Positions 1 through 6,000 of a stretch of 13,408 bases of DNA are shown here, piece after piece; position 1 is the first letter of the stretch, and the number at the start of each line of letters is the position of its first letter. This DNA comes from a virus (taxonomy: Duplodnaviria > Heunggongvirae > Uroviricota > Caudoviricetes). The position numbers were made by a program. The stretch lies in IMG/VR virus record IMGVR_UViG_2698536458_000006; one strand, given 5' to 3'.

Positions 1-3000
1 CCGCATGGAACAAGTTGCATGCGTGACTATATTAAGACGACTTATAACCACCAAAACATTTGCTTTGCAAGCAAAAACAGTGGGTTTGAGTACATTATTT
101 TAAAGCAAGATAAACAATATCGGGCACTCTAGTTTTTATAATTAACAATTAAACGTCCATAAAATGTTATTTACTTTTCTTCGCTATTGTCATATCTTAA
201 TATAGTGGCTTACGCCACTCTACTTTCATCACATTTTGTACGTTTATGTACTCGCCATGAAGCTCTTTCATGGCGATTTTTTATTCTTAATCCAAGAACA
301 TACTCCCTACCTATAGCAAAATCACTTTTTTAACAAAAGAATAACGTATTTAGGTAATCATTACGAATTTACCCTATAGGTGCTACTGGCCATTCAATAT
401 CCGGTGCAGTTGATGTATCAACACGGTTCAGCAACACCCGATACTTTTTCCAAGCTTCCAGCAACAAGGTTTCTTTCTCCGTTGCGATCTCCAGATCCAC
501 AGCATCCTGAAGCGGCGCTATATGCTCACTGGCTACCTGCATCAGGCTGTTTTTTGTTTCTTCCGCCTCCCGGATCCGGAACAGTTTTTCTGCTTCCGTA
601 TCCTTCACCCAGGCTGTGCCGTTCCACTTCTGAAACTCCCCTTCCGGGGATAACCAGGTGACATTTTCCGGTAATGAGCCGAGTTCAGAAATAAATAACG
701 CGTCGCCGGAAGCCACGTCATAAACCGTTTTACCCCGATGATCTTCAACGAGATGCCACGATGACTCATCACTGTTGAAAACAGCCACGAAACCAGCCGG
801 AATATCTGGCGGTGCAATATCGGTACTGTTTGCAGGCAGACCTGTATGAGGCGGAATATATGCGTCACCTTCACCAATAAATTCATTAGTTCCGGCCAGC
901 AGGTTATAAATTTTTATGGTCCGTGCTTGTTCACTCATTCTGAATGCCATTATGCGAGCCTCACAATATAGTTAAATGCGATGTTTTTGACGGTGTTTTC
1001 CGCGTTACCAGCAGCGTTAACGGTGATGGTGTGTCCATGTGAACCAATCGCAACAGAGTGCGTATGAGCACCAATACCGACAGTATGCGCGTGTGCACCC
1101 GCAGATGCTGCTGTGCCGGACAGTGAGTGTGTATGGTTTCCTTCTGAAGATGATTTACCTACCCATTGGGAGGTGCCACTGGTTAATGAGCCACTGATAC
1201 CAACCTGATTAGTCCCGCTAACTTGAGTACTCCCTGCCGGAAACATTCCAGTAGGTTGACTCCCGCTATTCGTTCTGGGCCCAGTCTGACTATGTTGGTG
1301 GGCCCCAGCTGAACTTGTAGAGCCGCTCAGACTGTGCGTATGCGCCCCGGTGTTATTCGTGGATTTAGTGCCGTAATCAAACGACGATGTGGTTTTCGTC
1401 CCCAAATCCGTACTGGATGCGCTGGCGCTGTGGGTGTGCGATTTAATGCCATCCTGTTCCTGAGACAATACGGCACGACCACTGGCGGGCTTGCCCTTAA
1501 TCGTCCAGCCACGCATATCAGGGATCACGCCTGACGGATAAGCGGCTGCAAGTTTCGGGTAAGCAGATTTGTCAAAAGTCTGCCCCTGCATCAGGGCATA
1601 ACCAGACGGAACGGTATCTGATGGCCACGGGATTGGTGCACCGACTGGATAAAACTCTGCAGGAGGATGAGCCGAGGTGTAAAGCTGCGCCCACGGCGAC
1701 CAGTTTGCGTCGGTCGTATCCCGTCGTGAACGAATAAATGCCGGAGCATGAGCACCGCTTGTACCACTCCAGCCGATGAGTAACTCACCTTCGCCAACGG
1801 CTGTCATCCCTTTCAGGTGAATGATATTTCCATACGCTGTTGGATATCCGTTGTTATACACCTCGTATAACTCAAGACCTGCTGCCCCCTGCGTATTGTC
1901 TGTCAGCGCGGCTACCCGACCTTTTGAAGCCAGATTAACTGATGATACTGCTGTTCCACCTGACGGTAGCGCCCCGATCTCTGATGCCGTTGGCTTATTT
2001 CTGGAGTTATAGTCCCTTCGCCAGCCAGGTGAATAATCTGTTCCGTGATTAATATAGGTAAACTGGGCGTTGGTTGTTCCGCCACCGCTGGATGTGGTCG
2101 GAGTGGTAATGCGGATCGTCATCGCTGACTTTATCCCCATTACTTCAATGACAGCTCCGGCGAGATGAATATTACCGCAGCCAGTATCAGTAATGATTTT
2201 ATTATTGCCATAAGACCAGGAACCCTTGCACATCCAGTATGGATGGTTAAATGCTCCCTGAGAATCCAGCCACTCGATAAACTGTGCAGTCGTCCAGTTT
2301 CCTGTTGTTGTGCTTACTGACCCACCGAAGGCACGGCAGGCACCAATATTTTTCGTAAAGGTGTCTTTGCCAGGGATATCCGCACCGTTCTGATCTTTCT
2401 GCAGACGTTTCTCAGCATTGTCATTGGCTGCTTTTACTGCCTTTGGCGTTGCCGCCAGCGTTTCAGACGTGCTGTTGGTCGCGCTGCTTAGCTGGATTAT
2501 CCCTTTCTGTGCTGTCGTTGCATCCTGTGCGGTGTATTTCCCGTTAGCCAGGTCATACGCGGCCTTAACGGCTTTTGGTGTTGCCGCCAGTGACTCGGAA
2601 GTGCTGTTAGTCGCACTACTGAGCTGTACTATCCCCTTTTTCGTCGTGCTCGCATCCTCAAGCGCCACGGCGGATGCAATATCCTCTGCCCGTTTTGCCG
2701 CTGTCTCAGCGCGCGTTGCTGCAGATTCCGCCGTACTTTTGCTCTGAGCTGCTGCCGTCGCACTACCAGCAGCCTCTGTCGCCTTCGTGGATGCCGTCGT
2801 GGCGCTGCCCTTCGCTGCTGACGCCTGTCTGGTCGCCTCATCTTTTGAAGCAGACGCCGATGATGCCGATGACGCCGCCGAACTGGCGGACGATGCGGCA
2901 GCCGTTTTTGAGGATTCTGCACGGGTTTCCGACGCTTTCGCGTTCGTTTCGGATGTCTTCGCTGCGGAAGCTGACCTCGCTGCTGCCGTGGCCTGCTCAG

Positions 3001-6000
3001 TGGCTTCGCCAGCCTTCGTTGTGGCTGTTGAAGCGGATGATGCGGCGCTTTCTGCCGATTTTCCGGCGGCGGTGGCACTGGCTGAGGCCTGCCCGGCACT
3101 TGTTGACGCGGCGCTGGCAGACGACGCAGCCGCTGTTTTTGAGCCTGCCGCAGCTGAGGCACTCTGTCCCGCTGCCGTTTCAGAAGACCTGGCGTNNNNN
3201 NNNNNNNNNNNNNNNNNTAATCCTAACTCATCAATATGTCCGATGCGCGAACCATTTGAATAGAAGCTAATAATACCATCTCCATCTTGCCTAAATCCGG
3301 TGTCGTTATCTCCCAGAACAATGGAGTTTTCACCCAGTGCGTTATCAGTAGCTCCAATAGCTAGACCTCCTTTAATTTTGGCCCCGTGGCTGACAGATAT
3401 AGCACCTGTTCTCAGATTTATAGCGAATGGCCTTAATGGGCCGATATTACCGTTTTCGCCTTGTCCTTCAGCCGTCGGAATGAAATGAAGAAAATCTTCT
3501 GAACGACGGAAAATTAGACCGAAGGTATCATTGAAAATTCGCAGCGCATTCACCGTGCCAATTTTCAGTTCTCCGGTCATTTTATCGCCGGAACGCTGAA
3601 CGGCGTTACCAGCCTTGTTTACCGTTTCCTGTAAACCGAGGTATTCGATAACGGCAGCAACGGTCGATTTCGCAAGAATATCCCGCCCGACTTTTGTCAG
3701 GGTTGCCAGGCTGGCGACATCATTCCCCGTAAAATACGGAAACTTGCCTGCCGCAGTAGTAAGTCCGGCCAGCGCCGTCAGGGTGGCATCTTTCGGTTGC
3801 TTACCCGCAAGCGCGTTAGTCATGGTGGTCGCAAAATTCGGGTCGTTGCCCAGCGCCGCAGCCAGCTCGTTCAGCGTGTTCAGTGCATCAGGTGACGAAT
3901 CTACAAGGGCGGCAATCGCAGCCATAACGAAAGCCGTGCTTGCGATTTGGGTATTATTCGTTCCCTGTCGCGCAGTTGGTGTTGTTGGCGTTCCGGTCAG
4001 TGCAGGACTATTTAAGGGCGCTTTCTTGTTCGTTTCACCCATTACCGCCTTAACCGCTTTTGGCGTTGCCGCCAGTGACTCGGAAGTGCTGTTGGTCGCA
4101 CTGCTGAGCTGTACTATCCCCTTTTTCGTCGTGCTCGCATCCTCAAGCGCCACGGCGGATGCAATATCCTCTGCCCGTTTTGCTGCTGTCTCGGCGCGCG
4201 TTGCCGCGGATTCAGCAGCAACTTTGCTCTGAGATGCAGCCGTCGCACTGCCTGCCGCCTCTGATGCTTTCGTTGTTGCTGTCGTGGCACTACCTTTCGC
4301 TGCTGACGCTTGTCTGGTCGCCTCATCTTTTGAAGCAGACGCAGATGATGCCGATGACGCCGCTGAACTGGCTGACGATGCGGCTGCTGCCTTAGAGGAA
4401 GCAGCATTGTCTGCTGAAGTCTTTGCATTTGTTTCAGAGGTTTTTGCTGCAGAAGCAGACCTCGCTGCTGCAGTGGCTTGCTCAGTGGCTTTGCCAGCCT
4501 TCGTTGTGGCTGTTGAAGCGGATGATGCGGCGCTTTCTGCCGATTTTCCGGCGGCGGTGGCACTGGCTGAGGCCTGCCCGGCTCTTGTTGACGCGGCACT
4601 GGCAGATAATGCAGCCGCTGTTTTTGAACCTGCCGCAGCTGAGGCACTCTGTCCCGCTGCCGTTTCAGAAGACCTGGCGTTCGTCTCGGACGTTTTGGCC
4701 GCCTTCGCAGAATTTGCAGCCGCCGTCGCCGAGGAAGCTGCGCTACTGGCGCTTGATGATGCGTTCGTTTCTGATGATTTTGCCGCCTCTTTTGAAGCCG
4801 ACGCATCCCGGGCTGAGGTGGCAGCTTCTGACGCTTTCGTGGTCGCGGTGGATGCAGAAGTGGCTGCTGATTGTTGTGACGCTGCCGCATTCGTTTCTAA
4901 CGTTTTCGCCGCACCGGCACTGGTAGCCGCCGCGCTTTTTGAGGACTCTGCAGCGGCAGCACTTTTTGAGGCTTCAGTGGCCTTTGTTGATGCCGTTCCT
5001 GCGCTGGAAGACGCTGACTGAGCCGACGAAGCGGCCTGTCCGGCTGACGTGCTGGCTGCACGTGCTGAATCTGCAGCATCAGTCGCATGGGTTGCCGCCT
5101 CACGGGCTGATGTGCTGGCATCGCTGGCTGATTTCTTCGCGGCTGCCGTGTTCTGTGCCACCGCGGACGCGTTACGCGCCACCTCTTCCACCATCAGCTC
5201 AAAACGGCGCAGTGCCTCCGGACGGGCATCATCCTCCGTCATGGCACCGAGAAAATCATTCAGCGTACCGGGTCGGGAATCTTCATACACGGTGATGGTC
5301 CCGGCATGTGACGGCGGGAATCCTTCCACCAACAGAATAACGCTGTACTGACCGTACTCAACGTCCATGCTGTAACGCCCGGCTTCATCCGGATTTTCTG
5401 AGGCCAGCGTGTTCACCACCACCGTGGTGCTGTTACGTTTTGCTTTCAGCTGGATTGTGCAGTTCTGTACCGGTTTTCCTGTGCCGTCTTTCAGTACACC
5501 TGAAATCTTTACTGCCATATTCACCCCACAAAAAAGCCCGCCTGAACCGGCGGGCTGTCATAACACTGTGTTACCTGGCTAATCAGAATTTATAACCGAC
5601 ACCCACGATGAAACCGTCAGTGCGCCAGAGACGTGTTGCTGTGGCGACCGTCATCACTTCCGGTCAGCACATCGTGCGTTTTCCCCTTATTGTCAGTTAC
5701 GCGGATATAATCCCCGGAAAAAGTCGACACACGGCTGTAAGCCACACCCGCCATCGCATACGCGCTGAACCATTCATTCACGCGCACAGACGGCCCCGCC
5801 ATCACGCTGAACCAGCGGTTACGCACGGAATCTTCATGCCAGCGGGTATCGCTGTAACGGGTCAGCTGGCGATTCTTGTCTCCTGCATAGCTGAATGACG
5901 TCACCAGCCCCAGCGTATCCGTAAACTCATAACGGTATTTCACGTTAATCCCGTTCAGATCATCACTGCCGGGAACGTTGGTCCGGGCATGAAGATACCC

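Follow-up and report, generated by a model that had tools for sequence, protein, structure and literature searches.

Does the long stf reading frame of this viral sequence encode one unusual tail fibre with two receptor-binding-like modules in series, or does it join parts of two separate fibre genes? We examined the complete 13,408-nucleotide stretch (hereafter the window), in which a minus-strand ORF at 950–5524 extends over 1,524 residues and stays open and in frame through 22 Ns at 3196–3217, reading ...GAGTTAGGATTA, the 22 Ns, and then ACGCCAGGTCTTC.... The initial annotation had described this gap, in-frame continuation included, together with a 630-bp shaft repeat (2565–3195 and 4050–4680); both are present, and the exact bounds of the repeat are 2562–3195 and 4047–4680 (634 nt, ungapped, on the same strand, with an offset of 1,485). 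Its copies share 568 of 634 nucleotides (89.6%) and 196 of 210 residues, and the codon differences between them comprise 43 synonymous and 14 non-synonymous changes, a predominance of synonymous differences that points to diverged alleles rather than to a recent or exact duplication. Because 1,485 is divisible by three, the in-frame reading over the 22 Ns can be put down to chance; the prior for an in-frame join is 1 in 3, and Ala/Ser/Thr shaft codons seldom make stops. On the sequence comparisons reported here, the composite ORF is almost certainly an assembly or scaffolding artefact, in which two ordinary lambdoid stf alleles meet across the 22-N gap.

The two distal regions distinguished in the initial annotation are indeed different, and a separate family search of each half, which it had proposed, placed both in fibre families by Pfam, PHROG and PDB comparison. 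The 953–2560 half holds Phage_fiber_2 and Collar domains and a His-rich C-terminus (PF03406, 2.1e-37; PF07484, 4.5e-12), whereas 3218–4045 is tail-fibre/Mu S-like, with PDB matches to a tail-collar-fibre chain (9d93, 1.8e-11) and to the Mu fibre protein S (5yvq, 3.8e-10). The reading from 5518 to 3218 had been taken for a complete-looking fibre; instead it runs out at ...IDELGL, where the contig ends, without reaching a stop and 160–200 residues before the C-termini of its homologues, so that the module in front of the second shaft is incomplete. PHROG tail-fibre matches to 3218–4045 end inside the profiles and not at profile ends. In one homologue (L001) the DNA is identical over the final 113 nt to ...IDELGL and then encodes 160 residues more, and the lambdoid homologue of the truncated fibre in reference L003 is 968 residues long. 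Compared with the P2-type 'tail-collar fiber' gene, 3218–4046 shows 96–97% identity in DNA.

The window is composed of five contigs and four N-runs (Table 1), all five contigs being pieces of one lambdoid J-lom-stf-tfa tail module that is represented by at least two diverged copies. By tblastn, J lies at 7660 to 6173, Lom at 6099 to 5623 and Tfa at 950 to 378, which places stf between lom and tfa, with J ahead of lom; a second J (10553 to 9237) and a second Lom (9154 to 8558) follow in the window. Fragments of tfa, stf, lom and J fill 368–13272, and 75–368 aligns to the sitD–tfa interval of SCU-111, which would probably place one of the prophages beside sitABCD. Mapped to a single phage reference, L004, the contigs occupy, in window order, 1484–4298, 3665–7361, 4405–4482, 4571–7220 and 6628–9368 of its module; on this mapping a homology break coincides with each of the four N-runs, the reference coordinate falls back at three joins, and the fourth is a true gap. 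The 13.4-kb window thereby collapses onto 7.9–8.7 kb in phage genomes. At the true gap, the flanks of the 104-N run lie 458 nt apart in complete genome H96 versus 479 nt in the window. Contig ends in the window carry exact overlaps of 52, 46 and 591 nt: contig 1–3195 closes with 52 nt (3144–3195) that are an exact copy of 4629–4680, and the first 591 nt of contig 10560–13408 duplicate 6927–7517 exactly. The J alleles that overlap around the shortest N-run (9961–10555 and 10560–11154) are 95.6% identical. Three of the N-runs (7661–7671, 7752–7855 and 10556–10559) were absent from the initial annotation.

Table 1 Contigs, N-runs and tail-module features of the window (ref, position on the L004 module)
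Feature	Coordinates	Strand	Description
Contigs	1–3195; 3218–7660; 7672–7751; 7856–10555; 10560–13408		Five contigs making up the window
tfa	369–950	-	193 aa, assembly chaperone; Caudo_TAP PF02413, E = 4.6e-44
stf C-terminal part	950–3195	-	748 codons, to the end of contig 1; stop at 950–952
N-run	3196–3217		22 N; joins contig 1–3195 to 3218–7660; false adjacency
Distal stf part	3218–4046	-	P2 gpH/Mu S-like; cut at contig end, no stop, tip of about 160–200 aa missing
Shaft block	4047–4680	-	L003-type, counterpart of 2562–3195; includes the 52-nt exact block 4629–4680
stf N-terminus	4681–5518	-	279 codons, PF08400 and proximal shaft, L004 type
N-run	7661–7671		11 N; mid-J (ref 7361) to stf shaft (ref 4405); backward jump of about 3 kb
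stf shaft piece	7672–7751	-	80-nt contig, L003-type; maps to ref 4405–4482
N-run	7752–7855		104 N; true gap of about 85 nt within one stf gene; flanks at ref 4482 and 4571
Second stf start	7856–8403	-	N-terminal 182 codons (MTVKISGVLKDG...), L003-type
N-run	10556–10559		4 N; joins two overlapping J alleles; backward jump of about 590 nt

Two allele types are represented among the stf pieces. The stf part of contig 1, which contains the mid-shaft, two Phage_fiber_2 repeats, the Collar domain and His-rich GAHxH repeats, is L004-type throughout, agreeing with L004 at 83 of the 86 sites that discriminate L003 from L004 and reaching 98.4% identity to it over 1305–3195. The adjoining tfa, whose product is 93.7% identical to PhiR68_2 Tfa over 191 aa, belongs with this lambda-type allele. 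Contig 3218–7660 is mixed: nearly all discriminating sites up to 4628 are L003-type, most of those from 4661 are L004-type, and identity to L004 is 96–100% per 100 nt from 4818, so that the contig switches allele between 4628 and 4661, inside the shared 52-nt block. Judged by allele type, 4681–5518 follows on naturally from 3195 and not from 4680. Fibre starts and fibre ends are each present twice in the window, and PF08400 is matched over its entire profile (positions 1–134 of 134) from both 5518 (E = 9e-72) and 8403 (E = 1.2e-70). The second of these starts, 7856–8403, is 95.7% identical to L003 and just 84.7% identical to 4953–5541, and the 80-nt contig is 100% identical to positions 6492–6571 of L003.

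We then compared both possible junctions with 5,426 complete E. coli genomes, none of which covers at least 80% of the scaffolded junction (2896–3517). The scaffolded ORF, 1,524 codons long and with two distal parts, is not a single colinear Stf of about 770–1,120 aa, whereas deleting 3196–4680 yields one: an intact 1,027-aa Stf with 95% identity end to end to the 1,025-aa Stf of L004. The 800 nt around this spliced junction (from the 4681 side to 3195) match 3,644 of the 5,426 genomes in a single uninterrupted stretch, the best at 99.5%, in comparison with a best of 96.4% for the 800 nt of contig 3218–7660's own sequence around 4680; in the 95–99% identity band the spliced junction is found in 1,803 records and the contig's own in 106. 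The 22-N join thus combines an N-run at a homology break with a junction absent from finished genomes and an alternative join present in them, as a misjoin does. The exact arrangement of both flanks around 22 Ns had no match in collections of viral, genomic or metagenomic sequence. For the 11-N join of J to the stf shaft, no full-length counterpart was found in complete genomes, a weakly informative result, with some records joined in another gene order.

We propose that allelic copies carried by two prophages in a single genome, or possibly by two strains, would have entered the assembly together; exact stretches common to both stf copies in the Ala/Ser/Thr shaft would have led the assembler to break or switch there, and the scaffolder would have lined up the pieces of the different alleles one after another, separated by N-runs. 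One gene, of lambda/PhiR68_2 type, would begin with PF08400, continue through the shaft and Collar domain to a His-rich C-terminus, with tfa as the next gene, and would read from 5518 to 4681 joined to 3195 to 950. The other, of the type seen in ST131-like prophages, would combine a PF08400 N-terminus and shaft with the P2 H/Mu S-like distal part, its tip, expected to measure about 0.5–0.6 kb and to have tfa beyond it, lying off the contig; it would read from 8403 to 7856, across the gap to 7751–7672 and, after about 106 missing nucleotides, from 4680 to 3218. Allele types in complete genomes make this phasing probable, and it would render contig 3218–7660 chimeric at the 52-nt shared block. 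The phasing is less certain than the unreality of the composite ORF because fibre mosaicism is natural and the contig's own junction does reach 96.4%. Each fibre would work like lambda Stf, for which reversible adsorption via the distal tip, with Tfa as the assembly chaperone, is established knowledge (PMC11338833).

The phasing is where a rival account carries most weight. The 22-N join may be false and contig 3218–7660 nevertheless a natural recombinant of an L004-type N-terminus with an L003-type distal part, in which case the other gene would read 8403 to 7856, 7751 to 7672 and 3195 to 950; the composite ORF would remain an artefact and only the phasing would change. We consider this possible but rather unlikely. 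The contig has no internal N, yet its allele switch sits in the very 52-nt block at which contig 1 ends, as expected of graph mis-traversal. Fibre mosaicism is common, one distal region turning up in both P2-like and lambdoid settings, but the spliced join surpasses the contig's own junction both in best identity and in the number of records at 95–99%. Reference coordinates would also allow 7672–7751 (ref 4405) to stand before contig 1 (ref 4298), with a gap of 106 nt. Less probable again is an origin of the two allele sets in two strains of a mixed or metagenomic sample instead of in two prophages of one genome: two alleles suffice for every duplicated stretch, but one genome is enough to supply them, as matches per E. 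coli genome have a median of 1–4 and reach 14, several lambdoid prophages per genome being common.

Readings that accept the scaffold as it stands fare far worse. A single real 1,524-residue fibre with an internal 630-bp duplication, the second alternative of the initial annotation, could appeal to an ORF that is open and in frame over the N-run and to two halves that are both bona fide fibre sequence; its first module, however, falls 160–200 aa short exactly at the contig end, its frame is a one-in-three outcome in a shaft poor in stops, and its block copies differ mainly at synonymous sites, as alleles do. A second fibre N-terminus lies elsewhere in the window (8403 to 7856), homology breaks at all N-runs, an equal 'restart' occurs at N-runs inside J, where such a reading is impossible, and the junction is in 0 of 5,426 complete genomes. 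We regard this fibre as very improbable. Were the junction real, a truncated P2/Mu S-like knob would precede another shaft and then a lambda-type tip in a Stf of about 1,500 residues, giving a branched or two-specificity fibre from unequal recombination between two stf alleles, an architecture to which we attach next to no credence. The homology breaks, the second N-terminus and the missing junction instead favour the annotation's first alternative, an in-frame fusion of two stf alleles created during assembly. It is just as hard to credit that the N-runs are masks on real contiguous sequence and that unequal recombination has generated a genuine tandem array of partial J-lom-stf modules in the window. 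One public collection does mask a few stretches as N, and tandem prophage arrays exist, but masks would have no reason to fall on four of four homology breakpoints; the exact 591-nt duplicate that starts right at an N-run is a mark of contig ends, as are the exact overlaps of 52 and 46 nt at termini, the 80-nt island with N-runs on both sides has the usual look of a tiny contig, and these joins occur in no complete genome. We rejected a mask as the source of the 22 Ns on the coincidence of all four N-runs with homology breakpoints bearing exact terminal overlaps.

Set beside known systems, the reconstructed first gene is without substantive difference from lambda and lambdoid Stf–Tfa (PhiR68_2 Stf XSB43513.1, 1,025 aa; Rac StfR), with which it shares PF08400, the Ala/Ser/Thr shaft, Phage_fiber_2, Collar, the His-rich end, the J-lom-stf-tfa gene order, and 95% colinear amino acid identity once 3196–4680 is removed; the scaffolded form, in contrast, has 1,485 extra bases of another allele. 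The second gene resembles the P2 gpH/Mu S-like lambdoid stf of IPCEC48 and ST131-type prophages, 3218–4680 matching IPCEC48 at 98–100% identity per 100 nt across most of 3418–4617, and also the P2-like 'tail-collar fiber' WP_176264528.1 of strain 4238, to which 3218–4129 is 96% identical; unlike these, the window copy ends ...IDELGL, without the last 160–200 aa and the downstream tfa genes. In its breakpoint N-runs, exact end overlaps, 80-nt mini-contig and serial alleles, the window is like draft genomes in which multi-copy prophage modules have been misassembled through repeat collapse or scaffolding. Invertible fibre segments (Mu G, P1 C and e14 P, with Gin, Cin and Pin) would also explain two alternative distal ends of one fibre gene, but the distal parts and shaft copies of the window are all direct, on the minus strand, and the second part has its own shaft copy. 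We rejected an invertible-segment origin of the composite on this direct orientation of all parts, no distal exons lying in opposite orientation. No serine invertase gene was found among the tfa, stf, lom and J fragments of 368–13272, the contig downstream of the P2-like distal end being missing from the window, and an inverted-repeat search downstream of the IPCEC48 homologue returned no convincing crossover sites. Downstream of that homologue lie tfa genes in opposed orientation, a partial fibre gene and a recombinase remnant.

Beneath the composite, which is not a real feature, lie ordinary genes that belong to well-known stf allele families. Automated annotation would nevertheless report a 'tail fibre' of 1,524 aa that has two receptor-binding regions, since a 1-in-3 frame coincidence and a stop-poor Ala/Ser/Thr shaft produce a convincing long ORF, and studies of host range or those mining for receptor-binding proteins could take the composite as an unusual dual-specificity fibre. 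The main value of the finding is therefore one of caution, and the window illustrates how multi-copy lambdoid J-lom-stf modules are chained together in scaffolds.

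The window contains four N-runs (3196-3217, 22 nt; 7661-7671, 11 nt; 7752-7855, 104 nt; 10556-10559, 4 nt), and we confirmed that a minus-strand ORF of 1,524 aa (950..5524) stays open through the 22 Ns, as the initial annotation had described. The repeated shaft block that it reported is also present, with 4047-4680 forming a second, ungapped copy of 2562-3195 in the same orientation at an offset of 1485. The copies match at 568 of 634 nt (89.6%) and 196 of 210 residues, and their codons differ synonymously in 43 cases and non-synonymously in 14; they are diverged alleles, not a duplication. 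Frame is kept over the N-run only because 829 + 22 + 634 = 1485, a multiple of 3; for an arbitrary gap length this is a 1-in-3 event, in a stop-codon-poor shaft.

For mapping the window, the tail module J-lom-stf-tfa of Escherichia phage PhiR68_2 (L004) served as the reference. The reference position jumps backward at three of the four N-runs, and what occupies 7.9-8.7 kb in phage genomes takes up 12.9 kb of the window, where tblastn found three matches to J, two to Lom and one to Tfa. The 104-N run spans a genuine gap of ~85 nt; its flanks are separated by 458 nt in a complete genome (H96) and by 479 nt in the window. Beyond it lies a second stf start (7856-8403), 84.7% identical in DNA to the first (4953-5541). 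Counting fibre ends, the window has two N-termini and two C-termini, one C-terminus complete and the other truncated, and therefore holds two genes, not one.

Features of the window and their counterparts in the PhiR68_2 module (L004)
Feature	Window	Strand	Domain or context	L004 reference
Tail-fibre assembly protein ORF	369-950		Caudo_TAP, 4.6e-44	
stf C-terminal part	3193->953	minus	Two Phage_fiber_2 repeats (2.1e-37), Collar domain (4.5e-12), His-rich C-terminus	
First stf N-terminus	5518->4681	minus	Prophage tail-fibre N-terminal domain PF08400, E = 9e-72	
Second stf start codon and N-terminal domain (MTVKISGVLKDG...)	8403->7856	minus	PF08400, 1.2e-70	
Second lom	8555-9154		After second stf start	
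Second J C-terminus	9237-10553		After second lom	
Mapped stretch	368-3195			1484-4298
Mapped stretch	4047-7660			3665-7361
Mapped stretch	7672-7749			4405-4482
Mapped stretch	7859-10553			4571-7220
Mapped stretch	10560-13272			6628-9368

Exact repeats mark three ends among the contigs that the N-runs separate (segments 1-5): the final 52 nt of segment 1 recur at 4629-4680, the final 46 nt of segment 4 at 11109-11154, and the initial 591 nt of segment 5 (10560-11150) at 6927-7517, within gene J. The second copy of this J repeat begins on the first base past the 4-N run; past the repeat the copies diverge sharply, 7518-7660 being PhiR68_2-like and 11151 onward a J allele ~75-79% identical to PhiR68_2, and the repeat is another fork of the assembly. 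We infer that the exact terminal overlaps are the trace of graph-based assemblers at repeat forks. J in segment 5 also shifts frame at ~11392-11440 (minus strand; residues 7-628 in frame -2, 619-913 in frame -1), the mark of either a pseudogene or a frameshift introduced by sequencing or assembly.

The first fibre (5518->3218), initially described as complete, has no stop and breaks off at ...SRIGHIDELGL, on the final base before the Ns. Its unique region (3218-4045) aligned inside tail-fibre PHROG profiles, not at their ends (358-494 of 1376 and 98-239 of 346, among others); in the PDB it matched 9d93, a chain of a tail-collar fibre (1.8e-11), and 5yvq, protein S of the Mu fibre (3.8e-10). 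At the DNA level, 3218-4046 is 97% identical to a P2-type 'tail-collar fiber' gene of E. coli 4238, an alignment that reaches 4129 at 96%, and 94-95% identical to lambdoid stf genes of E. coli IPCEC48 and other strains. Over its final 113 nt, which end at ...IDELGL, the window sequence is identical to strain 4238, whose protein runs 160 residues further, and the IPCEC48 gene encodes 968 aa against 767 codons here; because these homologues read on, the first fibre is cut off at the contig end. The lom copy adjoining its start (5617-6099, minus strand) encodes 160 aa versus 199, with Lom residues 1-159 aligned at 98%. Between stf and lom ~78 nt are missing relative to PhiR68_2 (window 5623/5628 versus reference 5246/5324), and the C-terminus of this lom copy is therefore replaced or truncated.

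Phasing sites distinguishing the IPCEC48-type allele (L003) from the PhiR68_2-type allele (L004) gave the L004 type at 83 of 86 sites in segment 1. Segments 3 and 4 are L003-type, with 100% and 95.7% identity to that allele. Segment 2 is L003-type at 4047-4628 and L004-type from 4661 on; the switch therefore falls within the 52-nt block that ends segment 1. Without 3196-4680, an intact ORF of 3,084 nt remains, and its 1,027-aa product can be aligned over the whole length of the 1,025-aa PhiR68_2 Stf at 95%. We searched 800-nt (or 622-nt) junction sequences against 5,426 complete E. coli genomes. The spliced junction (3195 + 4681) matched as a single unbroken stretch in 3,644 genomes (best 99.5%), and the native 800 nt of segment 2 around 4680 reached 96.4% at best. 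The scaffolded junction (2896-3517) was covered in none of the 5,426.

We propose that two diverged lambdoid stf genes, probably from two prophages and less likely from two strains, share exact shaft stretches at which the assembler would have broken or crossed over, the scaffolder then placing the pieces in series. Gene 1 would run 5518->4681 + 3195->950 and precede tfa; gene 2 would run 8403->7856, a gap, 7751->7672, ~106 nt missing, then 4680->3218, with its tip missing. This phasing follows allele type, and the reciprocal one could hold because fibre genes are naturally mosaic; under either, the 1,524-codon ORF is no gene. Of the two readings in the initial annotation, in-frame fusion of two stf alleles by the assembly is borne out by the two N-termini and the junction's absence from the genomes searched. 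A real, internally duplicated fibre would account for the open frame, but its first module is cut at a contig end, 8403->7856 is a separate N-terminus, and the scaffolded junction is most improbable as a real one. An invertase-switched fibre was rejected, as all parts of the window are direct and tfa, stf, lom and J fragments fill 368-13272, with no room in that span for an invertase gene.

Several relatives carry features of their own. E. coli SCU-111 and relatives match 75-2506 at 97.7%, and 75-368, left of tfa, matches their sitD-tfa interval (L002 3776-4069); because of this match, the segment 1 prophage probably adjoins the sitABCD iron/manganese transporter operon. In IPCEC48, RefSeq tags stf 'missing C-terminus', yet the frame is open to a 968-aa product. 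Positions 1869-4989 of that locus, 3' of stf with its P2-like distal part, hold a pair of opposed tfa genes, a truncated recombinase and, on the opposite strand, a partial fibre gene; the arrangement resembles a Pin/Gin-type invertible fibre segment that has decayed. The best match to the spliced junction, E. coli Z226-5 (L005 8684-11907), lies in a defective prophage beside nohD and adjoining the bio operon and ybhB, which we take to be the lambda attachment region. Its CDS is labelled 'phage terminase large subunit family protein, frameshifted', a misleading product name, since a deletion seems to have fused packaging genes to stf.

Homologues of the window region show distal parts common to P2-like and lambdoid fibres, and such sharing has long been known in the P2 tail-fibre literature. 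Lambda Stf acts through OmpC to promote reversible adsorption, and chimeras of lambda and P2 Stf are functional (PMC11338833). Each gene belongs to known stf allele families and, in function, both would be ordinary side tail fibres; the composite is an assembly artefact.
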